32,000 nucleotides of DNA from Nostoc punctiforme PCC 73102. Lineage in GTDB: Bacteria > Cyanobacteriota > Cyanobacteriia > Cyanobacteriales > Nostocaceae. The stretch is taken from the NCBI RefSeq assembly GCF_000020025.1, contig NC_010628.1, forward strand, positions 8,160,001-8,192,000, written 5' to 3'. Shown in pieces: positions 4,973 to 32,000 of this stretch. Both the position numbers and the translations under genes were made by a program. The notes beneath the pieces are model-generated. The model made no database searches and was not told the DNA's origin. It worked only from the letters and a program-made list of their open reading frames with translations. How positions within the stretch are numbered: position 1 is the first letter of the stretch; each line of letters begins with the position of its first letter.

Positions 4973-4975
4973 TGC

Positions 4976-8044: not shown

Positions 8045-8806
8045 TTAAATTACACTAGCTGAGAAAACGAAGTCATTTGCTGTTAGGCTAGTCGATGTAA
8101 CTCCAACCAATGAAGCCAACTCTGTATTTCCGGCTTTCACCAAAGTATCGCTACCCTGTTGCAATAGAGTTAAGGCACTAAATTGAGTAACACCAATACC
8201 GCCCAGCCCGATTTTATCAATGCCAACTGCAAAATCAGTTACAATGTTCTTGCTAGTTGGCAGACTGGCGTTAGCAATCCAGAATTGGTCAGCACCAGTA
8301 CCACCAGTTAAGCGATTACCGCCCTGTTGACCAGCAAATAGCACATCATCACCATCGCCACCAAACAGCGAATCATTCACACTGGAGAAGAGTTTGTCAT
8401 CTCCAGAACCACCGTAGAGGCGGTTATTGCTACCGTTACTCTTGAGGGTATCGTTACCTGAGCCACCGAAAGACAGTTGACGCGAACCTTCAACTACTGT
8501 GAGAGTATCAGCACCTGCGCCTCCGAACAAATTATTACTACCATTGGCTTCCACTACGGTAACTTCGTCATTACCATTGCCACCATCAGCACTAGTGTTA
8601 CTAGCAGGGCTATTTACGCCAATAAAAACTTGATCGTTACCATCTCCTGTGGACACTGAAGAGCCACTGCCGACTAGTACCGTATCTTCACCGTTACCAG
8701 TCACGATTGTGTTACCTTTAGTACCTTCTACAAAGTCTGCGCCGTCACCTGCAAATAAGGTTTGATTTGGCTTGAGGGTGACATCATCACTATTAGTAGA
8801 ACCAAA
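8045..8806 (-). repeat. Shared RTX/C-terminal cassette, copy 1 (3' end of the AP/NPP-like gene)
   Basis: Nucleotide-level paralogue of 11122-11883. I counted about 15 mismatches by eye in the first ~320 nt. It is more diverged from 17913-18677. The similarity continues past the stop codon into 7995-8044. Confidence 0.9.
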
Positions 8807-10717: not shown

Positions 10718-10927
10718 GCTTACTATTCCTTAAGTATTGTGAGCTACGATTAATCGCAGCAATTGTGTATCTGTATGAGCGATTAATTACGCTTAAGCCA
10801 AGCAAAAAATTCTTGGCTACAGAAACCTAAATAGTATTTGGCGACAAAATGCTTAGTGTCCACACAAAATAGGGCAGACAATTAAATGAACTTAACTTTG
10901 GTTACTGTCTCAAAAGATAGTTGTTCA

Positions 10928-10957
10928 ATGTTTAAGGAAAGTTATAAACAAGTTAAG
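10928..10957 (-). promoter_or_regulatory. Candidate Pho box (PhoB/SphR site): three 8-bp direct repeats in 11-bp phase
   Basis: The minus strand reads CTTAACTT-gtt-TATAACTT-tcc-TTAAACAT. Against the cyanobacterial consensus PyTTAAPyPy(T/A) the units score 8/8, 7/8 and 6/8. The site lies ~210-240 nt upstream of the ATG at 10717. Confidence 0.35.
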
Positions 10958-11121
10958 ATTTTGGACAAAAAGATTCCCGATTTCTTCAAGAAGTCGGGAA
11001 TCTAATCCTTTAGATAGAGAGCAAATCAAAATATGATTGCAATATCACTCTTTAGAGTTAGCAAAAGCGCTACAGCTTAATTCATTTTGAACATTGAATC
11101 TAAGCTGTAATCATTTTTCGG

Positions 11122-11883
11122 CTAAATGACACTAGCAGAAAAAACGAAATCATTTGCTGTGAGGCTAGTTGATGTAACTCCAACTAATGAAGCCAACTCT
11201 GTATTTCCGGCTTTCACCAAAGTATCGCTACCTTGTTGTAATAGAGTTAAGGCACTAAATTGAGTAACACCAATACCGCCCAGCCCGATTTTATCAATGC
11301 CAACTACAAAATCAGTCACAATGTTCTTGCTAGTTGGCAGATTGGCGTTAGCAATCCAGAATTGGTCAGCACCAGTACCACCAGTTAAGCGATTACCACC
11401 CTGTTGACCAGCAAATAGCACATCATCACCATCGCCACCAGACAAGGAATCATTGAAATTGGAGAAGAGTTTGTCATCGCCAGAACCACCGTAGAGACGG
11501 TTATTGCTACCGCCACTTCTGAGGGTGTCATTACCTGAGCCACCAAATAATGATTGACGAGAACCTTCAATTACAGTGAGGCTATCATCACCTGTACCGC
11601 CAAGTAAATTATTACTACCACTGGCTTCTACTACGGTAATAACATCATTACCATTGCCACCATCAGCACTGGTATTTTGAGCCGGGCCATTTTGACCAAT
11701 AAATATCTGATCGTTACCGTCTCCTGTGGATACTGAAGAGTCGCTGCCGGCTAGTACCGTGTCTTCACCGTTTCCGGTTTGGATTGTGTTCCCTTTAGTA
11801 CCCTCGACAAAATCTGCTCCGTCACCGGTGAATAGAGTTTGATTTGGTTGAACGGTAATATCATCGCTGGTAGTAGAGCCAAA
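11122..11883 (-). repeat. Shared RTX/C-terminal cassette, copy 2 (3' end of the 2068-aa gene)
   Basis: Same cassette as 8045-8806. It encodes FGST(N/T)SDD...[15 protein letters not shown]...QFWIANA(S/N)[11 protein letters not shown]...[11 protein letters not shown]. The 3' flank 11069-11121 is also similar to 7995-8044. Confidence 0.9.
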
Positions 11884-17328: not shown

Positions 17329-17851
17329 AATTAGAATGTTTTTTGGTGGGTATTTGGATTTAGCTGCATCACAAGCTATTCAAGTTCTCTCAACTGCATT
17401 ACTTGTGGTAAAAAGCAATCATTTTCTCACTCTATTAACCGGAATTATGGGAATATTTCAGAATTACATTACAAAAATATTGTTCGGTTCAGTCGAAAAT
17501 TGCTATTAACTCCGAGTCTTTTTTCACAGTTATTGAAAGCTAGAGTAATGATGTTCAAATGTTAACTACTAATCTGTGTTAGCTAGTAAGAGTGTGCAAC
17601 TAAATTCCGAGTTTAAGTTGGTCGATAGTAGTTATGAGAGAACTTGACCATTATTAGAGATGTTTCCATTGAAAGATTAAGAAAAGAATAAGTTAAACGG
17701 AAGAGATGATTAAAATACATTTAAATAAAAAATAATTTTTATTCACCCTTGCTGTATAATTCTTTTTAAGAGTTTTAAAGAGATGAAAGTTAATTTTTTT
17801 AGTTTGAATTTGCTAGCGATCGCATCAACTTTGCTGTCCAATAAATAGGCT

Positions 17852-17879
17852 GTAGGGACGTATAGCGGTACGTCCCTAC
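17852..17879. repeat. GTAG...CTAC palindromic hairpin repeat (Nostocales-type short intergenic repeat), possibly a terminator for the 1417-aa gene
   Basis: GTAGGGACGTA-tagcgg-TACGTCCCTAC, a perfect 11-bp stem, 33 nt downstream of the stop at 17913. A degenerate copy, GTAGGGGCGTA-tagatg-TACGTTCCTC, lies at 7812-7839. Confidence 0.6.
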
Positions 17880-17912
17880 TAAAGACTGTTCTATGAGAAG
17901 CTAGGCAACGAA

Positions 17913-18677
17913 TTAAGCCACGATACTAGCCGAGAAAACGAAATCATTTGCTGTGAGGTTAGTTGATGTAATGCCAACTAATGAAGCCAATTCTGTATTT
18001 CCAGCTTTCACTAAGGTGTCACTACCCTGTTGTAATAGCGTTAAACCACTAAACTGAGTAATACCAATACCGCCCAGCCCGATTTTGTCAATTCCGGCTG
18101 TAAAATCAGTAATGATGTTCTTGCTAGATGGCAGACTGGCGTTAGCAATCCAGAATTGGTCTGCACCAGCACCACCACTGAGGCGATTGCTACCTCCTTG
18201 ACCAGCAAATAGCACATCATCACCATCGCCACCAAATAGCGAATCATTGGTATTAGAAAAGATTTTGTCATCTCCAGAACCACCATACAGACGGTTATTG
18301 CTGCCGTTACTGGTGAGGGTGTCGTTACCTAGACCACCAAATAATGATTGGCGAGAACCTTCAATGACTGTGAGAGTATCATTACCTTCCGCCCCAAACA
18401 AATTATTATTACCATTGGCTTCCACTACGGTAATAACATCATCACCATTGCCACCATCAGCACTGATATTTTGAGCAGCGCCGTTTTGACCAATTACAAT
18501 TTGATCGTTACCATCTCCGGCAGAGACTGAAGAGTTACTACCTACGAGTACAGTGTCATCATCATTCCCAGCCTGGATTGTATTACCTTCAGTGCCCTCG
18601 ACAAAATCTGCTCCGTCACCTGCAAAGAATGTTTTTCCTGGCTGAACTGTAATATTATCGCTGTTGCTAGAGCCGAA
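17913..18677 (-). repeat. Shared RTX/C-terminal cassette, copy 3 (3' end of the 1417-aa gene)
   Basis: Same cassette and same order of repeats, but visibly more diverged at the nucleotide level than copies 1 and 2. It ends ...[12 protein letters not shown]. Confidence 0.85.
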
Positions 18678-21600
18678 ACTGCCGAGGAAAGTTGGCTTTA
18701 CACCTGTCAGGTTAACAGGATTGCGGGGATCGTAACTTGTGGTGTCAATATTTAGAAAATTGGGCAAGGCATTGGCTATATTCTCCCAAGGTACCAACTT
18801 AAAGTTAGAGTTGACGTTTTCACCATCAATGTTTTTGGCCGGTTCATTGGAGCCATCTTGAGTTACAAATAAACCAAATGGGAAGTTCGGCCCCAGTGGC
18901 ACGTTAATCACATCTGCACCGTCTGATTCTTGTACCCTGTCAATTGACCCATTGTTACCAACGGCAAAGTTACCCACATATTCGTTATTGCCTTCACGGG
19001 TGTAGGCAACAAAGGTACTATCGCCTTGGCTGGATGCTAGCAGATAACCTGTGCCGTTTTTGCCGTAGTAGATGGTCAACCCTTCTGCATCATCGGTAAG
19101 GTGAGAACCACCCTCAAAACGGACGCGATCGATCAGCTTGCCTGTTGTGCCACCGTCTGGTTCTGCCTGAAATTTCCAGATGCCCACATCTTCTTGGGCT
19201 ATGTAGAGAAAGCCGGTTTCTTGGTCAACGACCATACCCTCTGTTTGGGGAGAACGGTCTGCGGCTGTGGGTGAGGGGATGGTGAACTCCCGTACCAGTT
19301 CCGCTCCAATTTTGCCATTACCTTTGTCAATTAGCTTGAATTGAGCTATATCTCCAGTTTGGCGGCGACTGGTAAAAACATAGTAATCATTAGTTATAGG
19401 GCTACGGTATAAGGTAAGCCCGTAAGAACTGCGAGTTGATGCGGAATAGGGAGGTTCAAAAGGTGAGGCTTGGAAGATAGTGCCAATATTGCTATCGGTG
19501 ATATTTTCTAGGTAGTTACCGTCTATGCCAGGGTTGGGGTTAATTTTGAAAATTGCTAGTTTATCATTTTGGCGATCGCTAGCTACGGCAATATCAATAG
19601 ATTGATTGCCTAATTTAAAACCGTATTGCAGATCGATGTTGTTGTAGCGAATACCACCAGGATTAACTGTTTGCAATAAATTACCAGACAGGTCATAAAC
19701 CCGCAATCCAGCATTTTTGACTGAGGTTAGTACTAAACTATCAGCAGCATTTGTGGCGTTAACATAGATGGCTGGGTCATCAGCATCAGCATTCTGATCT
19801 ACAGCAGGTAATGCTGGATCTTCATCGTCAAATAAACCAGGACGAGTTTCTACTGTAGGTGCAGCAGTTGGAACCAAGTCTGCACCCAAGGTGAGGATTT
19901 GGGTATATTGGGTGCTACTAAAGTTGTTGTCACTCACCAGCACAATGGACTGACGACCATCTGCTAGTTTGGGACCGAAGGCAAGACCTTCTATATTATC
20001 CACTCCTGTAATCGGGTGATTTGCATCAGTGGGCAGATTGAGGTCAGTTAAATTCAACAGCAGACGCTTTTGGGCGGGTTTAATAGCTGCTAGTTGTTCA
20101 GCACTCAAACTATTGAGAGAATCGTAGAAACTAATGTCAGTCGCACCTTGCAAAGAAACTTCGTAGATTTTGATGGTATTGCCTACACCTTGGGCAAAGG
20201 AGCGTTCTAAGGCGAGGAAAGTGCCACGATTATCTATTGCCAATAAATCCGCCAAACCATTGTCAGCAGAGCCTGTGCTTGGGTTAGGTGCTTCGGGAAT
20301 GGCATCGGTGATGTAAAGGTATTCTTTTTCTGGTTGTCCAGTAACCAGATTATATTGCAGAATCCGAGAAGAGCTACCACTGGTGAATGAGGCTTTTAAT
20401 CCATCTTGGGAGAGGGCGTTTTCGGTGGCGGTAAATAGGGTTTTCTGGTCGGGTGTGATGGTGAGGCTTTCAAATGCCAGGTTATTGTATACACCTGATG
20501 TCTGCGTATCTCCGGCATCTACAATACCATTGTTGTTGGTATCTTCAACTACTGGCAGGAATTTGCTGGGGACAAAAAGCGATCCTACTTCTTGCCCTGT
20601 TGTAAGAGAAAATTCTTTAATAAAGGGATTGGTAACACGACCAGCAGTAGGATTAACTTCGCCTTCTGAAGAGATGAAGACTGTTCCATTGTTGCTTAAA
20701 GCAATGCCTTCAGGGTCAAGACTATTTAGTGGAAAAAATTTGCCGTTGGTATCTTTTAGGGTGGTGACATTGGTAAAAGTCACCCCGGAATCGGCAGCAG
20801 TGAAGGTATAAAAGCGGGCAGGAGCAACTTGAGAGCGATCGTCTGAGATGGCATAATAGCGGTTGTTAACAGCATCGTATGTGACACCAGATAATCCGCC
20901 CACTGGAGTTGGTGTGCCGTTGACATTTCCCGCCGCACCAGCAGGAATAAAGCCAGTAACGAAGGTAGTCTGCCTTTCAAAACTTACATTGGGAATGGTT
21001 TTACCTGCTTGAGTTGGTCTAGTTTGCACATCTGCGAACACCAAGCGATGGTCAGAACTGGGGAAGGGAAAAGTACCAACTGGGGAGAATGCCGGGTCAT
21101 TATTCAGCGGCCAAAAGACTCCTGAGTCGGTAATTGTCAGGTCAGCAGAGGGTAGCACGTAATCAGTCCGCAGGTTTCCGGGAGCTGTATCAGCAAAGTC
21201 TGCGGTATCAAAGCTAGGATTTCCTTTTTGGCTAACGTTTGCACCACCTTGTAAAGCCGCTTGTTGGGGACCGCCAAAACTGGTAGGAATGACATTAGTA
21301 TTGATCCCAGGATTTTGCAACAGTTGGCGAATAGCATTGTCATAACTATCACCATCTAATGGGTCAGCATTCTGATCGCCCATAATTACAAAGTCTGAGC
21401 CAGCAGCAATACCGCCTGTTTTACCCTGGTCATCATAAATGTAATTACCATTACCAGGGGTAATATAATCTGCCCAAAACCGAATTTCGTCATGGTTGCG
21501 CTTGCCGTTGCGGTCTTCCGCGCCATCAAAGGTCGGGGGTGTGGGGTGGCTAACAAGGGCGTGAATTGTTTTGCCGTTCACTTCGATGGGTACATCCCAG

Positions 21601-22166
21601 TGGCTTTTAGAGGAGAGGCGTAAAAGTGCCAGTTCCTCCTGAGAATACCAATCATTTGCCTGTGGCGTTGTGGGATCGTCGGGAAGCAAAGCATTGGGCA
21701 TATCCTTCCAGAGGAAGTTTTGGAAGGTGCGGATATTGGCGGTGTCAATGGGATATTTGGACAGCAGCAACATACCATATTGACCAGGGAAATCACCAAA
21801 TCCGAAGGCATCATCGCCATATCCCGATGTGCCTGGGGTTGTAACTACTGCGCTATTGTTGTTTAAGTCAAAGCCAGAGGCAATACCTGTGTTGGAGGGA
21901 GCGATATAGAAGTAGGGGTAGTCAACGGGAGTCGCACCGTTTTGACTTATGGCTAAATAATTTTGCTGGAATAGTTTAACTGCCTCTTGGGAGTAGTCAA
22001 ACTCATTAATTAGCAGCACATCCGGGTTGTTACGCTGGATAATTTCTGCAATAGCTTTTGCCTGAGCATTATTGGGGGTTGACAAATCGGCCGCTAATTG
22101 ACCTTGAGTACTGCGGTTTAGAGAAGCATTGAATTGGGAAAAGCGAATTGTATTATTAATTACCAT
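17913..22166 (-). CDS. Multidomain phosphoesterase: endonuclease/exonuclease/phosphatase (EEP) domain, phytase-like esterase domain, beta-propeller 3-phytase domain and C-terminal RTX repeats
   Basis: 1417-aa ORF. EEP motifs: [27 protein letters not shown] (~21010-22166). The phytase-like region contains GGLSGVTYD...YYAISDD. The beta-propeller phytase signature [11 protein letters not shown]...[12 protein letters not shown]...YNNIDL (~18700-19860) resembles Bacillus PhyC. A 254-aa RTX cassette ends the protein. No signal peptide. Confidence 0.8.
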
Positions 22167-22469
22167 AAGTTAGTGCTGGGGTAGATTCAAGTTTTGCAAA
22201 GATTAGTGTTTATCTGCGGCAACCACAGAACCAAATTGCTCAATCTCATCGCTGTAAAAGTGTGAAAAATTCTGAGTGTTAATGTGATTTATATTGTCGG
22301 TAAAAACCGTTAACTGCAAAGATGCGCTTCGCAGTTTAGAGAGTTTGCAATATCAACATGGACAATATAAAATATGCCTTCCAAATCACTGCTCTTAGAG
22401 ATTGTTAGAAGACAGCTACATAACTTTTTATATGAGTTTTTAATTGGGCAATCTCAAAGTATCCTGCTT

Positions 22470-22499
22470 AGATTAAGAAGTAGCTAGCAAAAAGTTAAG
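22470..22499 (-). promoter_or_regulatory. Candidate Pho-box half sites 22 bp apart
   Basis: The minus strand reads CTTAACTT-ttt-GCTAGCTA-ctt-CTTAATCT. The two outer units match PyTTAAPyPy(T/A) 8/8 and are spaced by two helical turns. The middle unit does not match. The site lies ~305-330 nt upstream of the ATG at 22166. Confidence 0.25.
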
Positions 22500-22830
22500 A
22501 TAAAAATAATTGTAGGGTTAGAGATGTTTTTTTCACAGCAATTATTCTCAGTTATATATCCCAATACGGTTGGGTTGAGCGTAAGCGTTACCCAAAAAAC
22601 CTTGATAATGTTGGGTTTCGTTCCTCAAACCAACCTACGTCTGATTATGTATATGTTTTTCTCTAATTAAGTTTCAAGTTGTTTGAAAATTGTTTCACTG
22701 TAACTTGAGGTGCTTTTAAATTCACCTTAACCACCATTAAATTTATCGGATAACTTAGAGAATTTAAAATTTTTGATACCAATAAGAGGACTTTTCAAAC
22801 ATCCTCTTAATGATAAATCTTTCACCCGAT

Positions 22831-22860
22831 ATAAAATAAGGTGGGCTGTTTACCCACCTT
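22831..22860 (-). terminator. Rho-independent terminator downstream of the COP23-like gene
   Basis: The minus strand forms stem AAGGTGGG / CCCACCTT (22838-22845 pairs with 22853-22860) with a 7-nt loop, followed by ATTTTAT (22831-22837). It lies ~95 nt after the stop codon. Confidence 0.55.
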
Positions 22861-22953
22861 AATGTAAATCTGTATTTTAAGATTACCGCGACAGAAAAAA
22901 CGATATCTTTTAGTTTTGGTGAAATTGTTCTGACATGTTGAGTAATTCAAGCA

Positions 22954-23730
22954 TTAGCGGAAATTACCAGGTTTTAAGCGAACAGAGTTAGGCTGAGACT
23001 GGCGACGAACTGCTACTCCATTTCGCAAATTGTTTCCAGTACCACCATCTTGGCGATCGAGGAAAGGTTTTAGATTAATGCCACTTCTAGATGAACTAAT
23101 CCGATTATTGCCACTCCCTAAAAGTGTACGTCCTAAATTATATAATTCATTCCCTCCACTACTGCGATCGCCATAAGTGTTAACGGCTATAGTTTGCTGT
23201 CCGTTGTCAGCAGTAGTCAAGTTCTGAAAAATACTATTGCGGATTACAACAGGATCTTTTCCACGTGGTACTGTCAGCACAATTCTACAGGTTGGGTTAG
23301 CTTCTGTTGTGACGCAGACAATATTTTCGTTATTCTCTACAGATGTCTGGAGTTCTTGTAAGCCATCTGGACGATAAAGTTCTAAGCGACTGGCAATTGT
23401 TGCACAACGTCTTTGTGCATCCCAACCACCGCCCAAAGCCGCAGGTGCTGCCCAAGGAAAGAATTGTCCTGGTTGACTTTGTGGCTGATACATAACGGTA
23501 GACTGACCGTTGTAAGTCTGGCAGGTAAACCGAGTTGTACCGTCAGATGAGGGTGAAGGGGGTATACCTGTTGATGTGTCTATTGGGACTGATGAGCCAC
23601 CTGATGGGACTGTTGGCACTACTACACCGTCGCCAGTAGAGTCATATTGTGCCATTGCTACCGAATTGCCGAGACACAAAGAGAAACCCAGAATACCCAA
23701 AGACATAAATCGCAGTAGTTGTGATGACAT
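22954..23730 (-). CDS. Secreted COP23-domain (circadian oscillating protein 23-like) protein
   Basis: 258-aa ORF. Signal peptide MSSQLLRFMSLGILGFSLCLGNSVAMA, then a Pro/Ser/Gly-rich linker. The core has the COP23-like pattern F-x-C...G-x-x-T-V-M...F-x-W...W-x-x-x-x-R-C-x-x-I-(S/A)-x-R...I-V-C...C...L-T-V-P. The family assignment is recalled from memory, not searched. Confidence 0.6.
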   Translation of the reverse strand: MSSQLLRFMSLGILGFSLCLGNSVAMAQYDSTGDGVVVPTVPSGGSSVPIDTSTGIPPSPSSDGTTRFTCQTYNGQSTVMYQPQSQPGQFFPWAAPAALGGGWDAQRRCATIASRLELYRPDGLQELQTSVENNENIVCVTTEANPTCRIVLTVPRGKDPVVIRNSIFQNLTTADNGQQTIAVNTYGDRSSGGNELYNLGRTLLGSGNNRISSSRSGINLKPFLDRQDGGTGNNLRNGVAVRRQSQPNSVRLKPGNFR

Positions 23731-24057
23731 AAATCATCCTCCAGTAGAAATAAGTAGGGAATTGATAGTTTAAGTGACGAATAATTCTCTTTTTTGATTC
23801 ATTAAAAACAGTATTTTTTTTCTCCCTTGCTTTTTTCTCTGGGAGTACCTTTTTCACCCACCCTTGAATTTCTGCATAACGCTCTACTCCTTCATAGTTC
23901 ATTTCGTGCTGGAGCGCACCTAGACCAAAGGGTATTTTTCTCACTTTGATGAGGAATTAGCGAAATACAGATAGAGCGATCGCAGGTATTCTACAACAAG
24001 GTCGTATTTTGAGATGCGATACCTCCGGTGGGCAAAGCCAACGCACAGCAGTAAAAC

Positions 24058-24086
24058 ACAAAAAACCCCGGCGAAACTAACCGGGG
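24058..24086 (-). terminator. Rho-independent terminator for the Psb34-like gene
   Basis: The minus strand reads CCCCGG-ttagtttcg-CCGGGG followed by TTTTTTGTG (plus-strand hairpin 24066-24086, A-tract 24060-24065). Confidence 0.75.
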
Positions 24087-24141
24087 TAAGAGAGAGAGGT
24101 ACGAATGACGATGAGATACAGCGATACCGAAATTGAAAATC

Positions 24142-24312
24142 TTAGCTAACGCTAAAACTAATTAAAACTAAAGTTGTAACAATTAAAGTAGCAAAAAGAC
24201 CTTGTAAAACGTATTTACGTTGTTCCCAAATTGCTGGGTACTCGGCGTAGTAAACCTTGGGTTCAGCTGCGTAGTTATTGAGAATGCCGTCTTCATTTAC
24301 AGTGGTGTACAT
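24142..24312 (-). CDS. Small single-pass membrane protein, ssl1498/Psb34-family light-harvesting-like protein (not in the supplied ORF track, which omits ORFs under 60 aa)
   Basis: Hand translation gives MYTTVNEDGILNNYAAEPKVYYAEYPAIWEQRKYVLQGLFATLIVTTLVLISFSVS* (56 aa). The LNN(F/Y)AxEPKxY motif plus a C-terminal transmembrane helix matches my recollection of the Psb34 family. A purine-rich AGAAGAGA lies upstream of the ATG, and a strong terminator lies ~55 nt downstream. Confidence 0.6.
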   Translation of the reverse strand: MYTTVNEDGILNNYAAEPKVYYAEYPAIWEQRKYVLQGLFATLIVTTLVLISFSVS

Positions 24313-24526
24313 ATTTTTTTCTCTTCTTTTGTTTACTTATGTAACTAAATTTAACAGGATTGTTACGAAACGTCAAGAGGACTTGACAAAAAAGGGCTGA
24401 TTATTTTAATAAAAATAACTTATCAGGCATAGGGGATTGAGGCAAAGCTACCCCAGCCGCCGAAAATGTCATATATTACGCAATTTTTTAAATTGCAAAA
24501 TCTAAAATCCAAAATTGTATAAAAAT

Positions 24527-24615
24527 AGAACTTACGCAAAACTACACGCGGTAGGGGCAATTCATGAATTACCCCTACCGGAAAATAACGGTTTGGGCTA
24601 TTTTTGGCGTAAGTC
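24527..24615. repeat. MITE-like nested palindromic repeat
   Basis: The outer inverted repeat ACTTACGCAAAA / TTTTGGCGTAAGT encloses the palindrome GTAGGGGCAATTCATGAATTACCCCTAC (24551-24578). A further hairpin, AGAGACGCGAT-aaa-TCGCCGTCTCT, follows at ~24652-24677. Confidence 0.5.
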
Positions 24616-24739
24616 CTGAAAGAGTAGAGACAATACGGTTCGGTTAAGGCAAGAGACGCGATAAATCGCCGTCTCTACAAAGGACTTACTTATTAGACAT
24701 CTCCAGAAATTAATTATGCGTTACCTGAAACCCTTTTAG

Positions 24740-24790
24740 TGTCACTGTAACCATAAGTTTGCCGCTTTTGAAAGCATAACCTTGCCGCAG
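24740..24790 (+). repeat. Relic transposon end: two degenerate TnsB-binding-type repeats starting with TGT
   Basis: TGTCACTGTAACCATAAGTTTGCCGC + TTTTGAAAGCATAACCTTGCCGCAG. This parallels the live end TGTCACTTAAAGGATATTGTGGCCG + TTTTTAAAGCATAAAGTGGCCGCAG, which begins 3 bp further right. Confidence 0.6.
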
Positions 24791-24793
24791 GAT

Positions 24794-24844
24794 TGTCACT
24801 TAAAGGATATTGTGGCCGTTTTTAAAGCATAAAGTGGCCGCAGT
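24794..24844 (+). repeat. Terminal inverted repeat, tniQ-proximal end (two TnsB-site-like repeats)
   Basis: TGTCACTTAAAGGATATTGTGGCCGTTTTTAAAGCATAAAGTGGCCGCAGT. It equals the reverse complement of 30308-30358 except for G/C at position 34. Confidence 0.9.
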
Positions 24845-24878
24845 AGTAAAACCTTAGAGAAAGGCGAATAAATAAGAT

Positions 24879-26465
24879 TTACTGTGAAAGATCCAGTCTT
24901 ATCTGCCTTAAAACATCAATTACCTCAGCCTGCCACAGCAAAGAGGGATGAGGCATAAATTTTCTGAGATTTTTAGCAGTAGGGGTAATGCCTTGTGCAT
25001 GAAGTACTGAAGCGAGTTGGCGTACTTCTCGACAGCCTTGCTCAATAGCTAGTTTATGGACGAATTTGCGGTAATCTTTATAGCGTAAAGAAATAGCATG
25101 GCACACAATAGGGCAATAGTGGTAGAAAGTAGCCAAACCAATACCAGTTCTCTTAGCTATTTTTCTTAGAGAAGGTGGTGGATACTCGTCGCTAAACAAA
25201 GCTAATTCAAGTATGTCTCTGATGTGTAAAAATCTTAGCTGCTGTTGATATTCACTATATCTAGTAGCCAAAGATGCTGATAAAGATTTTGAGCAAGCAG
25301 TTAAACTACTAGGAGTTTTGAATCCTAAACGAACAGCTAATTGAGTTAAAGAAGGAGGTGGTTCTTCTTCTTGAGCTAGTTGCATCGCCTGAATAACTCG
25401 TTCGCACTTAGGACTACTATTTGAAGTAACTAAAGCAGACTGTGATGATAATTTTTTCTGTTTAGGAGCAGGTAGAGAAACTAGCTGCTTAAGAGTAAGA
25501 GGTAGTATTTTAAGTTGAAGAAAATCGACAAGATTAGTTGATAAGGCGTAGCAGATTTTCAAAAGTTTATCTAAATTTGGGATGGCTACACCTGAATACC
25601 AATGTAGAATTTCATATCTCGATAACCCAAGCCAACGACCAAAAGCGGAAACATTACCTTGAGTATATTGATAGACGTAAGCTTCTAGGATTGTTTTAAT
25701 AGTCTCTCTTGGAGGTGGACAAGGAAATTCAGGAGCTTGAGCAATTAAATCTCCTAAAGTCTTAACTATCCAAATCTCTTGCTGTAAATTGGGTATCTCC
25801 TCGAACAATCTCTTATCTGGCAAAGATACTTCATAGTTCATCCCCAACCAACCACCACATTTCAGACAAAATCCAGGTCGTGAGTTATGCCACAGGTGTA
25901 AAAATTCAAGGTCACAGTGAGGACATTTTGATTCTAAAAATCGATAATGGATGGGACAAATGTTAGCTGGTTTCAAAGCCCACAGCAGAGGTGAATAAAT
26001 GACTTGTTGATTATTTAACCAGTCTTGATAGCAATAAGGACACCAAGCATGAGAATGCTTGAGCAATCCCAAAACTGGGAAGACTTTTGCCCAAGGTAGC
26101 ATTGTCAAAAACTGTAAGTCAGTACGTTTTGTCAATATTTCTAGAGCAAAAACCAGTTGTTTAGCTCCAATTTGTGTTCCGTTTAAAGCTTTTACAGAAG
26201 CTTGTCCATACAAACTTACGATACTTTTAGAATTCAAGGGATTGGTAGTATGGTTATGCCCAACTATTGGTTTTATCTCTCTAGCCAATAAAGTTCCAGG
26301 CAATACGCTATGAGCTGCGGCTAGACGAGCAACATAGCTAGTCAGACTTTCAACATAACAAGTACCAAGTCCAATCGGTTCCAGATGAAACAACCGGCTA
26401 GGACTGGGAGTAAATTCTGGGTCTTTGAGCCACAATTCATCGTTAACCGCCATGTTAGTCATCAT
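24879..26465 (-). CDS. tniQ: TniQ-family target selector, TnsD-like (N-terminal TniQ domain with zinc ribbon, C-terminal HTH repeats)
   Basis: 528-aa ORF. TniQ N-terminus: LFHLEPIGLGTCYVESLTSYVARLA. Cys/His cluster: HAWCPYCY...CPIHYRF...CPHCD...CLKCG. Two HTH-like segments: PSLTQLAVRLGF and PSLRKIAKRTGIGLATFYHY. The size is typical of TnsD. The start overlaps the tnsC stop by 11 nt; an alternative ATG at 26453 lies 1 nt past the tnsC stop. Confidence 0.85.
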   Translation of the reverse strand: MMTNMAVNDELWLKDPEFTPSPSRLFHLEPIGLGTCYVESLTSYVARLAAAHSVLPGTLLAREIKPIVGHNHTTNPLNSKSIVSLYGQASVKALNGTQIGAKQLVFALEILTKRTDLQFLTMLPWAKVFPVLGLLKHSHAWCPYCYQDWLNNQQVIYSPLLWALKPANICPIHYRFLESKCPHCDLEFLHLWHNSRPGFCLKCGGWLGMNYEVSLPDKRLFEEIPNLQQEIWIVKTLGDLIAQAPEFPCPPPRETIKTILEAYVYQYTQGNVSAFGRWLGLSRYEILHWYSGVAIPNLDKLLKICYALSTNLVDFLQLKILPLTLKQLVSLPAPKQKKLSSQSALVTSNSSPKCERVIQAMQLAQEEEPPPSLTQLAVRLGFKTPSSLTACSKSLSASLATRYSEYQQQLRFLHIRDILELALFSDEYPPPSLRKIAKRTGIGLATFYHYCPIVCHAISLRYKDYRKFVHKLAIEQGCREVRQLASVLHAQGITPTAKNLRKFMPHPSLLWQAEVIDVLRQIRLDLSQ

Positions 26466-27594
26466 CTGAATTTACCCCTACATCATCTCTTTTAGGTTTT
26501 CTTTGTCCAACACGACCTTTTTTGAGTAGGGAATTTTTGGCTGGCATTTTTATTCCATGTTCTGTTGAATATTGCCGCTCAAAAAAACTGGATTCTTCTT
26601 GAAAGCGTTTAAATCCCTGTTGTGCTTCTTCCTTAATTTTGTTGATACGAGATGCAGAAAAAGCACCTAATTTAAGATGTTTGCTATTAAGAGTCCGAGC
26701 TTCTTCAGAATAGGCAACTCTCAAAGAACGAGTTAACCAATTCTTCAATAGCCCCACACAACCAACTGAGCCAGAAAAAAGATACTCATAGTGTTGTTCT
26801 AATTTTGGTTCTTGTACAAGCGGAATGTGGCGTTGAAAAGTTCTAATTACTCTAATAAATTCAGCAATATCTTCTGGGTTATCAGCTTGGTAAGGTAACA
26901 GGTGAATATCTTCGCTACGCCGCCCTATTTGCCCATTCAAGGTAGGACAGTTAAGCAGTTCATAAGTTCCAAATAAAATATGTACTGTACCAGTAAGATT
27001 AGCAATAGACTTAATCCAGTTCATTTGCTGTAACATCTGGTGTCCGCCTGCCATCATAAATAAATGCTGTGCCTCGTCTACAGTAAAAGCTTTTACCTGA
27101 CGATAACGAAATGCTTTTTCCATTGCTCGGCGTAATGCGGGCGAATCTTGGCGGTAAGCCCGATTTAGCAACCCCAAATCCTTTACCTCACCGTGAGGAA
27201 TTTCATAATCAATTTTGTATTCAATCAAAACTTCCTGAAGGGATTCTAGGGCGCGAGTGTAATAATCTTTATAGCTAAACTTTCCTTGTTCTGTTGGAAT
27301 AGCTTCAATACCAGCAACAGCAATTTGACCAGGATTTTGGCGTAATGAGGGGAGAAATTCGTAATTTAGCAGATTTTCCAGACGCAAGCGTAAGGTTGTT
27401 TTTCCTACACCAGTCACACCAAAAACTAAAAATACTAAAGTGTCAGCTGGCTCCAGAATATTAATTAATAAAGTATCTAAGGCTTGTTTGAGCCTTTGAT
27501 GTGGAATAGTGATACTTTTGAAATAATCAGTTTTAATTTCGTTCGGCTGTAAGAGAAGTTCTTCTGGAAAAGAGTGCGACTGAATTTTTACCAT
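26455..27594 (-). CDS. tnsC: TnsC/TniB-like AAA+ ATPase transposition regulator
   Basis: 379-aa ORF. Walker A is FGVTGVGKTT and Walker B is FTVDEAQH. The ATG overlaps the tnsAB stop (ATGGTAA). Confidence 0.85.
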   Translation of the reverse strand: MVKIQSHSFPEELLLQPNEIKTDYFKSITIPHQRLKQALDTLLINILEPADTLVFLVFGVTGVGKTTLRLRLENLLNYEFLPSLRQNPGQIAVAGIEAIPTEQGKFSYKDYYTRALESLQEVLIEYKIDYEIPHGEVKDLGLLNRAYRQDSPALRRAMEKAFRYRQVKAFTVDEAQHLFMMAGGHQMLQQMNWIKSIANLTGTVHILFGTYELLNCPTLNGQIGRRSEDIHLLPYQADNPEDIAEFIRVIRTFQRHIPLVQEPKLEQHYEYLFSGSVGCVGLLKNWLTRSLRVAYSEEARTLNSKHLKLGAFSASRINKIKEEAQQGFKRFQEESSFFERQYSTEHGIKMPAKNSLLKKGRVGQRKPKRDDVGVNSDDD

Positions 27595-30197
27595 AGCTCC
27601 TCTGTATTGTAAGCTTCTATTTTGGTTAAATCTATTAATTTTTTTGCTGATGATTTTGGCTTTTTAATGCTTTCTGAACCTGCCAAAATATTTTTATCTA
27701 CATCTTGAACATTAGCTGAATAATTGTGTTTACTTAATTTACTTTCAATAACTGAGCTTTTTTCAATTAAAACCCAAATATCTTGTTGTGCTAAATCATG
27801 TAAGCGTTGTAATAACAAAGTTTCTTGGGCTTCAGTTCCTTCTAAATATGTAGCTTTTTCTTGGGCAGATAGAGTAATTCTTTGAGCGTGTTTCTGCCTT
27901 TTTCGACGTAATTGTGTGCTGGCTATGTTCACTTCTTTTTCGGAACGATTTTGGAAGGATTTGTAATGTTCAGAAATACAGCGTATCCAACGTCCCTTAA
28001 CGTAAGCATAAGCAGTCCCCATATCAAAAGGGTCGTAACGAATAGGTACATTAGTTCCTTCAATTTCTGGTCTTATGAACGAATCATCAATTGACCAATA
28101 GTAGAGATAATTAATTTTCACGCCTCTACTTGGTTGAACTTTTGCAGTTCCTTTAGGTGTAGAAGGTAAGGTAAAAATCTTAAAATTATCATCATAAATA
28201 ATCTGTTTCTGAGGGCGATAACCACTTGAATTTAGCCCTGACATAAAAGTTTGACGTGGGCTTTGTCCTAATGTTGGATGTTCTCTGCAATCATAGAATT
28301 CGTAACAATATGAACAAAAGTTTTCGTAGAGTTGATCTAGTGTCCAAACAGCTTGATTTTTGGGATTATTTGATTTCGTGACTTGGCGGACATTCTTAGT
28401 AATTTGAGTGTTGCCTCTAAGATTATAAAAAAACTCTGTATTTGTAGTTCCAAAAATACGTTCAATAATTGAACCAAATCTGGCTTTCGCAGCTGGTCGC
28501 TGCTTTTTGGTACATTCAAAAGCCGCTAACAAGGTCTCAAAGTATGTACTACTAAATTCTGTCCCACCGTCAACAACTATTGTCTCTGGTAATTTCTCAA
28601 ATCGCTGTACGCAGATTCTTAATACCATCATGCAACTACGGTAGCTTGGCTCGTCAAAAGTTAGGTAAACTGCGAGAATACGTCGGCTGTAAGCATCGAT
28701 TAACAGAGTTGCCCAAGGTCTACCAAGAAGATAACCTGTTCGGGAGCATACTAACTCAATATCCAGTTGCGTATGGTCAATGTGTGCTATCTCAAATGGA
28801 CGGTCGCCATGACATGGTGTGGTTAATTTCAACTCCCAATACAATAAAGATTGTTGATAAGCTGCTCTGTTTCCCTTACGTTTTTTTGTTTGCCTATAAC
28901 CAGAACGATGTTGAATTCTAGAACAAAATGTAGCGTAGCTAGGCAGCTTATCTGTTAGACCTGCTTTCTCCCATTCTCTTGCTAGAATTCCATAAACAGC
29001 TAGTTTGCTTCTTTGTTGAAAAGTTTCATAATATTCTTCAATTATTTTGTCAATGAAATCTTGAGACGATTGAGAAATTCTGGGTAAGCGATTGCCTCTA
29101 GCATTAGAGTTATTTAGCAGCCCAATATAACCACATTTGTACGCCTTTTGTGCTGCTATAAACTTAGCCTTCCATCTGCGAATAGTACGTTGTGGAACAG
29201 TTTCTTTATCTCTATAACTGTCATTAAGATAAGGTTCAATTACTTCATATCTTCGGTTAGCTTCTGCCAAGTCTTCAGGACTAGCTCTCAAAAAACGCTC
29301 CATTGCTTTTGGAGACATTTTTACTTGATTATGAGTTTTAGGTTCCAGTTGATTGGGTTTAACATCTAAAATATTCAGAATCGTTCCATTATTCGGTTGC
29401 GATTTTATCATTTGTACATAAGCTACCGCGATTTCTTGGTCACGGAAAAGCTGTACTTTTTCTGGCTCTGCTAAGGGTGCGGCACTCAAATTAATGTAAA
29501 TTTTTTTTGTAGCTATTAAAGCATTTATGTCATCAGGATTGCTCTGTTGAGTATGAATCATTTCCCAATAACTTATGCCCGGATTTAAGCTAATTAACTT
29601 CACCAAATTTTCAGCTATTTCTGGGTCAATTTGGTAATCTTCAGTAGTATAGGCTTTGAGAAATAGTCGATTTCTGTATTTAATCCAATCAATTTCTGTA
29701 TCTAACCGAATTCGGTAATACAGTCCTAATTTTTCTGCATAAGCAACTGCTGGCAGGTTTAACCACTGCCCATCTTCTGAACGCATATAACGTTGTGATT
29801 GTTTAGCTGCTAATTTTTCTAATCTTGATTCTGGTTTCCACTCTTCAAAACCTGCACTCCGCTTCCGAATTACGAAAAAGTCTGGTATATGCGAAGCTTT
29901 GATTATTTCCCCACTGCTTGAGGGGAATTCTAGAGTAATTTGATATGCTTGGTCGTAGTATTCGAGTACATCTGCGTCTTCTTCGTACTCCTCTACACCT
30001 GGCAATTCAATTTTATGGGACTCAAATTGAATAGTTTTTCCCATTTTGCGACTGGCGTAGTCGCCCCGGACATTTATACCACTGCTTTTGACTCGCCGAA
30101 TTGGTTCAGAGGCACGGATTTGGGAAATTAATTGCCTAGCCTCTTGTGGTAAATTTACGCCGCGACACCAATCATTAAACTCTTGGTCGCTCAACAT
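27588..30197 (-). CDS. tnsAB: TnsA-TnsB fusion: N-terminal TnsA-type endonuclease domain fused to a TnsB/MuA-family DDE transposase
   Basis: The N-terminal ~130 aa carry TnsA-like motifs FESHKIE...HIPDFFV...FEEWKPE (E / D / ExK). The downstream DDE core has IAHIDHTQLD, VVDGGTEFSS and ERIFGTTNTEF. The ORF track starts at a GTG (30239). I prefer the ATG at 30197 (MLSDQEF...), which has GGGGG 6-10 nt upstream. That gives 869 aa. Confidence 0.85.
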   Translation of the reverse strand: MLSDQEFNDWCRGVNLPQEARQLISQIRASEPIRRVKSSGINVRGDYASRKMGKTIQFESHKIELPGVEEYEEDADVLEYYDQAYQITLEFPSSSGEIIKASHIPDFFVIRKRSAGFEEWKPESRLEKLAAKQSQRYMRSEDGQWLNLPAVAYAEKLGLYYRIRLDTEIDWIKYRNRLFLKAYTTEDYQIDPEIAENLVKLISLNPGISYWEMIHTQQSNPDDINALIATKKIYINLSAAPLAEPEKVQLFRDQEIAVAYVQMIKSQPNNGTILNILDVKPNQLEPKTHNQVKMSPKAMERFLRASPEDLAEANRRYEVIEPYLNDSYRDKETVPQRTIRRWKAKFIAAQKAYKCGYIGLLNNSNARGNRLPRISQSSQDFIDKIIEEYYETFQQRSKLAVYGILAREWEKAGLTDKLPSYATFCSRIQHRSGYRQTKKRKGNRAAYQQSLLYWELKLTTPCHGDRPFEIAHIDHTQLDIELVCSRTGYLLGRPWATLLIDAYSRRILAVYLTFDEPSYRSCMMVLRICVQRFEKLPETIVVDGGTEFSSTYFETLLAAFECTKKQRPAAKARFGSIIERIFGTTNTEFFYNLRGNTQITKNVRQVTKSNNPKNQAVWTLDQLYENFCSYCYEFYDCREHPTLGQSPRQTFMSGLNSSGYRPQKQIIYDDNFKIFTLPSTPKGTAKVQPSRGVKINYLYYWSIDDSFIRPEIEGTNVPIRYDPFDMGTAYAYVKGRWIRCISEHYKSFQNRSEKEVNIASTQLRRKRQKHAQRITLSAQEKATYLEGTEAQETLLLQRLHDLAQQDIWVLIEKSSVIESKLSKHNYSANVQDVDKNILAGSESIKKPKSSAKKLIDLTKIEAYNTEELW

Positions 30198-30307
30198 ATT
30201 GGCCCCCAAGCTTTTAAAGCCGCAACAAGCTCTTACCACAAATCTAGGCTTTCGCCAGTTAAACAGTCTTTTATTGATATAAATATTTATACTTACCAGT
30301 TCAGATG

Positions 30308-30358
30308 ACTGCGGCCACTTTATGGTTTAAAAACGGCCACAATATCCTTTAAGTGACA
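30308..30358 (-). repeat. Terminal inverted repeat, tnsAB-proximal end of copy 1
   Basis: Its reverse complement reads TGTCACTTAAAGGATATTGTGGCCGTTTTTAAACCATAAAGTGGCCGCAGT. Confidence 0.9.
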
Positions 30359-30449
30359 CAAATGGACTTACGACAGCTTGAATTTTTGGGGTTTTTAAGA
30401 GACAAACTTGCTACTTCAGGTATTTGAGGGTGCATAATCCCTTAACTTT

Positions 30450-30502
30450 CGGCACGTTTATGCTTGATTTTTAGACTTTCGGCAACTTTTTGGTTTCAAA
30501 GC
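30450..30502 (-). repeat. Two further degenerate TnsB-site-like repeats in the inter-copy spacer
   Basis: The reverse complement gives AAAAATCAAGCATAAACGTGCCGA and CTTTGAAACCAAAAAGTTGCCGA. Compare AAGCATAAAGTGGCCGC and TGAAAGCATAACCTTGCCGC of the live and relic ends. Confidence 0.45.
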
Positions 30503-30581
30503 CAAATTTTAAGGCTGCGATCGCCTACGGCGGGCGCTTGCGCCATCGCGGAACGTTAAATCAAGCCTTGGCGCTTATCCT

Positions 30582-32000
30582 TGTCACTTAAAGGATATTG
30601 TGGCCGTTTTTAAACCATAAAGTGGCCGCAGTCATCTGAACTGGTAAGTATAAATATTTATATCAATAAAAGACTGTTTAACTGGCGAAAGCCTAGATTT
30701 GTGGTAAGAGCTTGTTGCGGCTTTAAAAGCTTGGGGGCCAATATGTTGAGCGACCAAGAGTTTAATGATTGGTGTCGCGGCGTAAATTTACCACAAGAGG
30801 CTAGGCAATTAATTTCCCAAATCCGTGCCTCTGAACCAATTCGGCGAGTCAAAAGCAGTGGTATAAATGTCCGGGGCGACTACGCCAGTCGCAAAATGGG
30901 AAAAACTATTCAATTTGAGTCCCATAAAATTGAATTGCCAGGTGTAGAGGAGTACGAAGAAGACGCAGATGTACTCGAATACTACGACCAAGCATATCAA
31001 ATTACTCTAGAATTCCCCTCAAGCAGTGGGGAAATAATCAAAGCTTCGCATATACCAGACTTTTTCGTAATTCGGAAGCGGAGTGCAGGTTTTGAAGAGT
31101 GGAAACCAGAATCAAGATTAGAAAAATTAGCAGCTAAACAATCACAACGTTATATGCGTTCAGAAGATGGGCAGTGGTTAAACCTGCCAGCAGTTGCTTA
31201 TGCAGAAAAATTAGGACTGTATTACCGAATTCGGTTAGATACAGAAATTGATTGGATTAAATACAGAAATCGACTATTTCTCAAAGCCTATACTACTGAA
31301 GATTACCAAATTGACCCAGAAATAGCTGAAAATTTGGTGAAGTTAATTAGCTTAAATCCGGGCATAAGTTATTGGGAAATGATTCATACTCAACAGAGCA
31401 ATCCTGATGACATAAATGCTTTAATAGCTACAAAAAAAATTTACATTAATTTGAGTGCCGCACCCTTAGCAGAGCCAGAAAAAGTACAGCTTTTCCGTGA
31501 CCAAGAAATCGCGGTAGCTTATGTACAAATGATAAAATCGCAACCGAATAATGGAACGATTCTGAATATTTTAGATGTTAAACCCAATCAACTGGAACCT
31601 AAAACTCATAATCAAGTAAAAATGTCTCCAAAAGCAATGGAGCGTTTTTTGAGAGCTAGTCCTGAAGACTTGGCAGAAGCTAACCGAAGATATGAAGTAA
31701 TTGAACCTTATCTTAATGACAGTTATAGAGATAAAGAAACTGTTCCACAACGTACTATTCGCAGATGGAAGGCTAAGTTTATAGCAGCACAAAAGGCGTA
31801 CAAATGTGGTTATATTGGGCTGCTAAATAACTCTAATGCTAGAGGCAATCGCTTACCCAGAATTTCTCAATCGTCTCAAGATTTCATTGACAAAATAATT
31901 GAAGAATATTATGAAACTTTTCAACAAAGAAGCAAACTAGCTGTTTATGGAATTCTAGCAAGAGAATGGGAGAAAGCAGGTCTAACAGATAAGCTGCCTA
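30582..32000 (+). mobile_element. Second copy of the same Tn7-like transposon, inverted, truncated by the window edge
   Basis: The stretch appears to be the exact reverse complement of 28940-30358, with mirror axis at 30470. Mirrored track ORFs have identical protein sequences and constant offsets (30088..30282 vs 30658..30852, 29940..30131 vs 30809..31000, 29148..29369 vs 31571..31792). It starts with TGTCACTTAAAGG at 30582. Confidence 0.9.
30743..32000 (+). CDS. tnsAB: TnsA-TnsB fusion transposase, copy 2 (5' part only; continues beyond the window)
   Basis: The ATG at 30743 mirrors 30197. The sequence reads ATGTTGAGCGACCAAGAG = MLSDQE..., identical to copy 1 as far as the window extends. 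Confidence 0.85.
   Translation, partial: MLSDQEFNDWCRGVNLPQEARQLISQIRASEPIRRVKSSGINVRGDYASRKMGKTIQFESHKIELPGVEEYEEDADVLEYYDQAYQITLEFPSSSGEIIKASHIPDFFVIRKRSAGFEEWKPESRLEKLAAKQSQRYMRSEDGQWLNLPAVAYAEKLGLYYRIRLDTEIDWIKYRNRLFLKAYTTEDYQIDPEIAENLVKLISLNPGISYWEMIHTQQSNPDDINALIATKKIYINLSAAPLAEPEKVQLFRDQEIAVAYVQMIKSQPNNGTILNILDVKPNQLEPKTHNQVKMSPKAMERFLRASPEDLAEANRRYEVIEPYLNDSYRDKETVPQRTIRRWKAKFIAAQKAYKCGYIGLLNNSNARGNRLPRISQSSQDFIDKIIEEYYETFQQRSKLAVYGILAREWEKAGLTDKLP

Follow-up and report, generated by a model that had tools for sequence, protein, structure and literature searches.

Two Minimal Tn7-like Transposons Head to Head Within the Arms of a Miniature Tn7-like Element in Nostoc punctiforme

Two copies of a minimal, cargo-free Tn7-like transposon lie head to head near the right edge of a 32,000-nucleotide stretch of Nostoc punctiforme PCC 73102 (NC_010628.1, positions 8,160,001 to 8,192,000; hereafter the window, with positions counted from its first letter). 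Both copies are accompanied by parts of a third, miniature Tn7-like element, here called O. The best explanation, to which we assign a probability of about one half, is that two targeted insertions occupied mirror-image sites in the two arms of O and that the centre between them was then flipped. The arrangement of the pair would then be due largely to the choice of target rather than to chance. The same family of transposons recurs 50-54 bp inside the ends of other Tn7-like elements, a register that is consistent with this explanation.

The inverted pair and the element that contains it

Copy 1 (24794..30358, minus strand) is 5,565 bp long, as the initial annotation gave it, and its ends are 51-nt terminal inverted repeats. 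Copy 2 begins at 30582 in the inverted orientation, on the plus strand, and is seen only over its first 1419 bp (30582..32000), where the window ends. A repeat search, with exact string identity rechecked, found the arms 28940-30358 and 30582-32000 to be 100% complementary over 1419 nt and 223 nt apart. The right terminal repeat of copy 2 occupies 30582-30632 and the N-terminus of its tnsAB starts at 30743; in both copies tnsAB begins 161 bp inward from the end that faces the spacer. The earlier description of two copies without visible difference, whose tnsAB-proximal ends face each other across a 223-bp spacer, was thus accurate. The perfect identity is uninformative about the origin of the pair, because the transposon is 99.98-100% identical between unrelated sequencing runs as well. 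A perfect chromosomal inverted repeat of 5.6 kb would be a built-in source of inversion and instability.

The sequences around the two copies belong together. O is a miniature Tn7-like element of about 291 bp composed of one arm (P1), an interior (P2) and the other arm (P3). Intact 291-bp copies are present on three Nostoc plasmids, pNe_5 of N. edaphicum, pC052_A and a C057 plasmid; on pNe_5 the element has Tn7-like inverted termini (TGTGACTGTAAGC...GGTTACAGTCAC) with the spacer-matching sequence in the middle. In the window, the 54 bp to the left of copy 1 (24740..24793, plus strand, starting TGTCACTGTAACCATAAGTTTGCCGC) form a terminal arm of O whose interior points rightward to copy 1. This arm is the reverse complement of P3 and aligns with P3 of the intact O at loci L022 and L053. 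The spacer (30359..30581), which is bounded by CAAAT (30359-30363) and ATCCT (30577-30581), is the O interior, inverted relative to the arm. Its first 166 bp match, at 92-94%, a sequence repeated on several Nostoc plasmids, and a MAFFT alignment places the forward spacer and the reverse complement of 24740-24788 collinear with intact O. The initial annotation had correctly recorded the geometry and its conflict with target immunity, and had missed that the spacer and the 54 bp on the left are parts of one miniature element.

A sister chromosome supplies the corresponding empty site. The 8.33-Mb Joint Genome Institute contig at locus L024 is collinear with window positions 12954-24739 at 97.6% identity and lacks O. 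The homology ends exactly at 24739, the O terminus, and O with its passengers is therefore an insertion relative to that strain. A DUF1611 gene flanks the empty site. The ends of O resemble those of an 11.5-kb tRNA-Leu-targeting element at locus L016. They are also similar to one end, the tnsA-proximal one, of a decayed element carried by Tolypothrix plasmids.

Additional features of O and its surroundings were recorded. The O interior in the window contains an extra 25 bp (atcgcctacggcgggcgcttgcgcc, 30520-30544) that is not in the plasmid copies; it adjoins a HIP1 site (GCGATCGC) and has the short direct repeat ATCGC on either side. O is inserted directly beside a near-perfect hairpin (AGACGTTGCAATGCAACGTCT; 8985-9012 at the L024 empty site, 24645-24675 in the window), and a dispersed hairpin repeat (GAGACGCGATAAATCGCCGTCTC) lies on either side of the insertion site. 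The L016 element (3859-15375), with its O-like ends (TGTGACTTTACCCATAACTTTGCCGC), contains a tRNA-Gly gene.

The junctions record how the copies relate to O. The 5 bp to the left of copy 1 are AGGAT (24789..24793, site x) and its reverse complement, ATCCT, lies at 30577-30581, directly before the right end of copy 2. The 5 bp to the right of copy 1 are CAAAT (30359-30363, site y). The AGGAT equivalent occurs once in intact O and twice, one of them inverted, in the window; it is therefore a genuine 5-bp target duplication that has been split and inverted. A clean 5-bp duplication, ACTGC, is present at the relative in locus L012, which shows that members of the family do generate duplications of this length. 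Site x is 54 bp from the P3 terminus and site y comprises positions 46-50 from the P1 terminus (about 50 bp). The two sites are mirror-equivalent in the arms of O, and at each of them the left end of the element is directed toward the terminus. The overall layout, x-[L..R]-y'-(interior inverted)-x'-[R..L], is the outcome expected either if inverted copies inserted at x and y recombined with each other or if one intramolecular event transposed the element replicatively from x into y.

In the explanation that we favor, O would have inserted into the Nostoc chromosome and two copies of the transposon would have nested in its terminal arms. The mirror-image arms would offer two sites, and once both were occupied the tnsAB ends would face each other across the O interior, which is the 223-bp spacer. 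Head-to-head orientation and spacing would follow because the target is two-armed. Homologous recombination between the identical inverted copies could then flip the interior, or an assembler may have picked one of two coexisting isomers; in both cases, each copy would keep one flank from each insertion. The identity of the transposon, the nature of O, the split of the duplication, the inversion of the interior and the register among relatives are shown; we infer the order of events and the completeness of copy 2. Beyond the window, copy 2 is predicted to end near 36146 and to be followed by ATTTG, then by about 45 bp of the P1 arm close to AAACTATAAACGTGCCATCCCGGTAAACTTATGCTTACAGTCACA (approximately AAACTATAAACGTGCC...CTTACAGTCACA), and then by the duplication TTTAG, AGACGTTGCATTGCAACGTCT... 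and the DUF1611 gene, as at the L024 empty site.

The same junctions bear on whether the pair is real. One might suspect an assembly artefact, whether a chimera produced by fold-back of a read or contig or a false join across a multi-copy repeat. The transposon is indeed multi-copy, short-read assemblies are interrupted where it ends, and reads of less than about 6 kb cannot tell which way round the 223-bp centre lies with respect to its surroundings. A relative of the transposon does sit on a truly artefactual metagenome contig, JAAUYH010233377.1 (loci L034 and L035), where a 78% relative has two 'inverted copies'. The 41 kb fetched from this contig are 100% self-complementary about the contig centre, and it was rejected as a second inverted pair; it serves instead as a negative control for the window. 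While a fold-back predicts a palindromic centre, the centre observed here is the non-palindromic O interior, which has 15% ungapped identity to its own reverse complement and a best local self-complement score of 13 (shuffle mean 13.5 +/- 3.1). In addition, both right-end junctions lie within 223 bp and exactly on the duplication boundaries of a known element, and the inverted AGGAT is a transposition footprint rather than a product of assembly. At most, the orientation of the centre would be the assembler's choice, and with the other orientation the structure would amount to a pair of ordinary insertions separated by the same 213 bp. The fold-back option that had been raised earlier is refuted by the non-palindromic centre, by the duplication split between the copies and by the different appearance of a true fold-back contig, and an artefact of any kind is very improbable.

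A biological counterpart of the fold-back would be template switching, in which a hairpin at the short inverted repeats of O copied one insertion into a giant palindrome. Template switching or fold-back is known to leave large palindromes whose centre is short and unique, and the inverted terminal arms of O could prime the strand switch. If the pair had formed in this way, the centre should consist of a single right-flank sequence joined to its complement, and the left end of copy 2 should be followed by the same AGGAT/P3 arm and mirrored chromosomal DNA. The two right junctions instead carry different O sequences, the CAAAT start of P2 and the P2 end with ATCCT, which together make up one complete interior. 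Because the right junctions hold different halves of a single O interior, duplication by template switching is excluded for practical purposes, and we give it hardly any credence.

A more serious competitor concerns only the route. With a resident copy at x, intramolecular replicative transposition into y, 213 bp away in the other arm of O, would duplicate the element in inverted orientation and invert the DNA between the copies; the targeting of the O arms would be unchanged. The initial annotation had suggested an origin in one step, and the junctions are compatible with it: they read exactly x-L..R-y', inverted spacer, x'-R..L-(y), with the duplication split and reverse-complemented, the pattern classically associated with IS26 (PMC4471558). 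Moreover, the TnsAB fusion of the CRISPR-associated transposon (CAST) PmcCAST, the nearest one characterized, is reported to form cointegrates at about the rate of the TnsA-less type V-K systems even though it has a TnsA domain (PMC9881144). On the other side, the TnsA catalytic motif residues E64, D106 and K121 (our numbering, taken from the alignment with the PmcCAST protein) are intact in the transposon studied here, and the related McCAST fusion moves by cut-and-paste (PMC9881144). Recombination between two independent identical copies would yield the same sequence as the single step, and therefore the window cannot distinguish the two routes. The one-step route is a possible but doubtful account of the pair.

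Integration 50-54 bp inside foreign Tn7-like ends

The proposed targeting is suggested by the relatives of the transposon. The left flanks were counted among family members whose TnsD is at least 58% identical, which gave 12 independent flanks. In seven of these, another Tn7-like end has its TGT[GCT] terminus at -52 to -54; with a chance expectation of 0.033 per flank, the binomial P is ~1e-8. Overall, the register is based on some 20 loci, of which many derive from metagenome bins, and L038, L015, L063 and L064 are further cases. The outer 53-bp modules differ between copies that are 100% identical, namely those in the window and at L001, and they therefore belong to the targets; the possibility that they are part of the transposon was rejected on the same grounds.

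The O arm itself has been used repeatedly. On pNFSY07 of N. flagelliforme, a single miniature relative is inserted 50 bp into the same O arm and the interior is un-inverted, an arrangement that represents the simple state of this site. On pNsp_c of strain ATCC 53789 the insertion is 53 bp into the O arm. Counting the window, three replicons carry an insertion in this arm, at 50, 53 and 54 bp.

The position of the foreign terminus coincides with the place where TnsD would be expected to read its target. At L016, where a relative targets a tRNA gene, the tRNA T-arm spans -53 to -43 as counted from the left end, and the TnsD motif described for this clade is 40-50 bp from the left end (PMC11837452). 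Because of these two observations, the foreign terminus is taken to stand at the expected reading position of TnsD. Thus, the 50-54 bp register would be the one in which TnsD of related tRNA-targeting elements reads the attachment site. The preferred integration point of the family in other Tn7-like ends would be 50-54 bp inward from the TGT terminus, where the target's two-repeat terminal module has its inner edge, and insertion would usually be with the tnsD-proximal (left) end toward that terminus. We infer that either TnsD, or TnsC together with the resident transposase, reads the foreign end.

Other candidate targets were considered. Targeting of tRNA genes was rejected, since there is no tRNA gene in the window nor at the loci of 11 of the 12 relatives; only the L016 element abuts one, its left end being 31 bp from tRNA-Leu(tag), and this element is 50% identical to the window transposon. 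Targeting of CRISPR repeats was also rejected because there is no repeat array in 22000-32000 and TnsD keeps its C-terminal region. A T-loop-like motif, GATTTGAACC, occurs in only about half of the foreign termini and on the opposite strand from the tRNA case; its role as a TnsD site is speculation. A Pfam search of the L012 flanks did not find genes of the host element.

The register also bears on a second insertion without any targeting, in which a family that lacks immunity made a random hop 213 bp away in the opposite orientation. Such behavior has a precedent in Tn5469, a cargo-free cyanobacterial element with one TniQ that is thought to have no site specificity (PMC9881144, PMC11406308), and the left flanks at L010, L023 and L047 have no terminus at -53. 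Nevertheless, even given a hit within the 291-bp O, the mirror position within +/-4 bp and the orientation would by our estimate have a probability of about 1.5%, and both the recurrence of the register in many unrelated ends and the repeated use of one O arm in three plasmids or genomes speak against it. An untargeted second insertion is unlikely.

Several observations weigh against two targeted insertions followed by a flip. The orientation within the register favors the left end by only about 2:1, and a right-type end is directed toward the terminus in five cases (L015, L038, L021, L063 and L064). At L063 (6171-6480, plasmid4 of Aulosira laxa NIES-50), foreign termini stand on either side of a miniature copy. 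The distance from site to terminus is 50 bp for y as against 54 bp for x, and both the second half of site y and the completeness of copy 2 are predictions, the far junction being beyond the window. Finally, among six relatives with both flanks, matching 5-bp flanks are absent from five that lie within longer contigs (L010, L013, L042, L044 and L047) and only L012 is clean. The non-matching flanks could mean frequent replicative movement, which would favor the one-step route. They could instead represent metagenome mis-joins or recombinational rearrangements, and most of them do stem from metagenome bins, in which repeats can be joined wrongly.

The miniature derivatives form a group of their own. 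Derivatives of the transposon of ~200-213 bp, with the same ends and an internal TTAACGAAGTTAT motif, are found on plasmids of Nostoc, Aulosira and relatives (L021 8056-8267; L061 7327-7526; L062, L063 and L064 near 7000-7250 / 6224-6425). The foreign termini beside the L063 copy face inward, are mutually unrelated and are each exactly 53 bp away, an arrangement that a simple single insertion fails to explain. At L010 (1-108 and 5675-5818) and L023 (7889-8000), from Nostoc TH1S01 and C057, the element is flanked by inverted arms with GTCCATTTTCTT repeats. These arms also hold a TTAACGAAGTTATAAGTAT motif whose core is loxP-like, and the nearest TGTG terminus is ~112 bp off; this target differs in kind from the 53-bp cases.

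Based on the register, the family may be a 'transposon-end hunter', a proposal that we consider about as likely to be right as wrong. TnsD, or TnsC recruited by resident TnsAB at the foreign end, would recognize foreign two-repeat terminal modules, and the element would integrate at the inner edge of the module, 50-54 bp in, and ride as cargo in larger relatives and miniature derivatives. In TnsAB-fusion systems, the contact between TnsB and TnsC, which in Tn7 is the source of immunity, may no longer repel, and may even attract. If this were true, nested arrays and inverted twins a couple of hundred base pairs apart would follow, and the pattern would explain the nested stacks of Tn7-like elements on Nostocales plasmids. 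The described classes of targets are glmS, tRNA genes, CRISPR repeats, comM and res sites, and no description of targeting to the ends of other Tn7-like elements was found in the literature searched. The register within foreign Tn7-like ends thus points to an attachment-site class that is undescribed in that literature.

The transposon, its genes and their surroundings

The transposon possesses the features of the Tn7 superfamily, including a TnsB-type DDE transposase, an adjacent TnsC/TniB protein, a TniQ/TnsD protein, TnsA, TGT...ACA ends and a 5-bp duplication. In copy 1, the left (tnsD-proximal) terminal inverted repeat occupies 24794..24844 on the plus strand and contains two repeats that resemble TnsB sites, AAAGGATATTGTGGCCG and AAAGCATAAAGTGGCCG; the right (tnsAB-proximal) repeat occupies 30308..30358 on the minus strand. 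The two 51-nt repeats start with TGTCAC, have two repeats each and differ from one another by one mismatch. Between them, tnsAB, tnsC and tnsD are three overlapping genes on the minus strand, and since these three open reading frames (ORFs) fill the 5,565 bp there is no cargo. A survey of ORFs and Pfam domains found no Cas effector genes or CRISPR array in the transposon, with no tandem repeats in 22000-32000; a Pfam scan of its proteins found no resolvase gene and a tRNA scan found no tRNA gene anywhere in the window.

The tnsAB gene (27588..30197, minus strand) encodes a natural TnsA-TnsB fusion of 869 amino acids from the ATG. Its Pfam matches are Mu-transpos_C (E 1.3e-06) and rve (E 1.5e-06), the latter scoring 28.8 bits and so falling short of the curated cutoff, 32.6. 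The fusion matches the PmcCAST protein PDB 9bw1_M with an E of 2.1e-270, with both the TnsA and TnsB parts covered. Specifically, the N-terminal 268 residues match the TnsA part at 228.7 bits (i-Evalue 1.1e-66), the TnsA motifs FESHKIE, IPDFFV and EEWKP are conserved, and the identical Logan product has a weak precomputed match to Tn7_TnsA-like_N. The tnsC gene (26455..27594, minus strand) encodes an AAA+ ATPase of 379 amino acids with Pfam AAA_22 and TniB domains, which matches PmcCAST TnsC (PDB 8fcu_Q) with an E of 2.6e-90. The tnsD gene (24879..26465, minus strand) encodes a TniQ family protein of 528 amino acids (Pfam TniQ, E 1.4e-15). It aligns with PmcCAST TnsD (PDB 8v32_J/9bw1; E 1.1e-79) over residues 9-321 and 412-512. 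The latter align to residues 346-446 of PmcTnsD, and the C-terminal region is kept, while residues 322-411, about 90 extra residues, have no alignment to PmcTnsD. The transposon belongs to the cyanobacterial TnsAB-fusion clade of Tn7-like transposons, which is already known, and is a close relative of the PmcCAST core (CAST type I-B2). It is itself neither a CAST nor a tRNA- or array-targeting element.

The transposon is multi-copy and currently active. Many unrelated sequencing runs yielded short-read contigs of 5.4-5.6 kb that match it at 99.98-100% and break off where it ends, and in one run it sits at another locus. The exact TnsC protein was found only on Logan contigs of at most 10 kb. 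A tblastn search of TnsD against plasmids returned one close relative only, and a scan of viral contigs with the end sequence of the transposon gave no match. In one 99.98% identical element (L003, 159-2769; Logan SRR8435138), tnsAB is called as ORFs of 235 and 633 amino acids that abut at 866/868, a point change separating TnsA from TnsB.

Rearranged or nested elements were seen at several other loci. At L047 (5237-13805), a deletion derivative of the transposon, consisting of TnsAB and a 317-amino-acid remnant, adjoins an operon of the CBASS type (antiphage signaling through cyclic oligonucleotides) with a DncV-like nucleotidyltransferase, E1/E2, JAB and SAVED proteins. At L018 (3229-9670) and L049 (226-5366), tnsAB is interrupted by the same cassette of three tyrosine recombinases and DUF6262, which is another mobile element nested inside relatives of the transposon. 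On a plasmid of Tolypothrix PCC 7601 (L054, 5605-11320), two different Tn7-like elements lie head to head, the tnsA-proximal end of one abutting a truncated tnsB of the other.

The remainder of the window holds genes of other kinds. A match to the Rfam small RNA PsrR1, a cyanobacterial photosynthesis regulator, lies at 24061-24143 on the minus strand (56.5 bits; gathering score 42), ~600 bp from the transposon nest and between a Psb34-like ORF and COP23. The PsrR1 match, the COP23 gene and the closest DNA matches, which are to Nostoc, mark the host as a Nostoc-type cyanobacterium. On the minus strand, 8045-22166 encodes three giant proteins of the secreted type for phosphorus scavenging (890, 2068 and 1417 amino acids), in which phytase-like, PhoX, GDPD, phosphodiesterase and RTX calcium-binding domains occur together; the 1417-amino-acid protein is called as 1278 amino acids in the sister L024. 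At 56-7006, also on the minus strand, a hybrid polyketide synthase with KS-AT-ACP-aminotransferase organization (1638 amino acids) and an adenylation-PCP protein (676 amino acids) are part of a natural-product cluster that extends past the window edge.

Target immunity and comparison with known systems

Target immunity and the choice of attachment site make Tn7-like systems, including the CASTs used in genome engineering, predictable. A resident copy of canonical Tn7 prevents further insertions over many kilobases on either side (PMC11406308), whereas copy 2 starts 223 bp from copy 1. The initial annotation regarded a second insertion this close as unexpected under canonical immunity, and that judgment stands. 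Either route would place an insertion ~213 bp from an identical resident copy, and therefore conflicts with canonical Tn7 immunity; two targeted insertions in particular would need immunity to be weak or absent. The annotation had also proposed that the family might lack immunity. This is plausible: in PmcCAST, the nearest characterized relative, TnsAB leaves the TnsC ATPase unstimulated, and whether immunity operates is questioned by the authors of that work (PMC11915506). They suggest that constitutive fusion to TnsA may prevent TnsB-induced disassembly of TnsC (PMC11915506). A PmcCAST-like core with identical copies ~220 bp apart thus bears on whether TnsAB-fusion systems have immunity (PMC11915506), and the locus suggests, as natural evidence read from sequence, that immunity in these systems is weak or absent.

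The transposon resembles canonical Tn7 in the roles of its TnsB-type transposase, TnsC ATPase and TnsD. Canonical Tn7 blocks nearby second insertions, in contrast to the window, where the copies are 213-223 bp apart. The layout of the pair resembles the product of IS26-type intramolecular replicative transposition, in which two inverted copies flank an inverted segment and the duplication is split and reverse-complemented (PMC4471558). IS26 belongs, however, to an unrelated transposase family, and the junctions in the window could equally arise by recombination between independent copies. Tn5469 of Fremyella diplosiphon, set against the window transposon by description alone, differs in being described as untargeted. 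Its TniQ is much shorter.

Among the closer relatives, PmcCAST (Tn7744; type I-B2, from the Peltigera membranacea cyanobiont; TnsABCD transpososome PDB 9bw1/8v32/8fcu) shares the TnsAB fusion, TnsC and TnsD, the TGT ends with two-repeat modules and an attachment site read on the left-end side. In contrast, the window transposon has no Cas genes, CRISPR array, second TniQ, cargo or flanking tRNA gene, and its TnsD has the ~90 extra residues (322-411). The tRNA-targeting TnsAB-fusion elements have their left end ~30 bp downstream of a tRNA gene, which the window lacks. The array-targeting minimal Tn7-like elements (Chacon Machado and Peters, 2025; PMC11837452) are also cargo-free, with tnsAB, tnsC and tnsD, multi-copy and insertion-sequence-like. 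They integrate at a fixed offset from a motif on the left-end side and have tRNA-targeting ancestry. However, they sit in CRISPR spacers, whereas the window transposon is flanked by Tn7-like ends and has no repeat array, and their TnsD has lost a C-terminal helix-turn-helix region of ~60 residues (PMC11837452), while the window TnsD keeps its C-terminal region.

The closest functional precedent for a transposon-hunting transposon, by analogy, is the Tn5053 family. Tn5053 and Tn402, the 'res-site hunters', are TniQ-bearing relatives of Tn7 whose sole targeting pathway leads to the recombination site of another transposon (PMC11406308). The clustering of insertions at a fixed position in the site of another mobile element is a trait that the window family shares, as seen in 7 of 12 left flanks and in the O arm of three replicons; the likeness is a functional analogy only. 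Unlike the window transposon, they have no TnsA, carry a resolvase (TniR), target the resolvase-occupied res sites of the Tn3 family and replicate via cointegrates.

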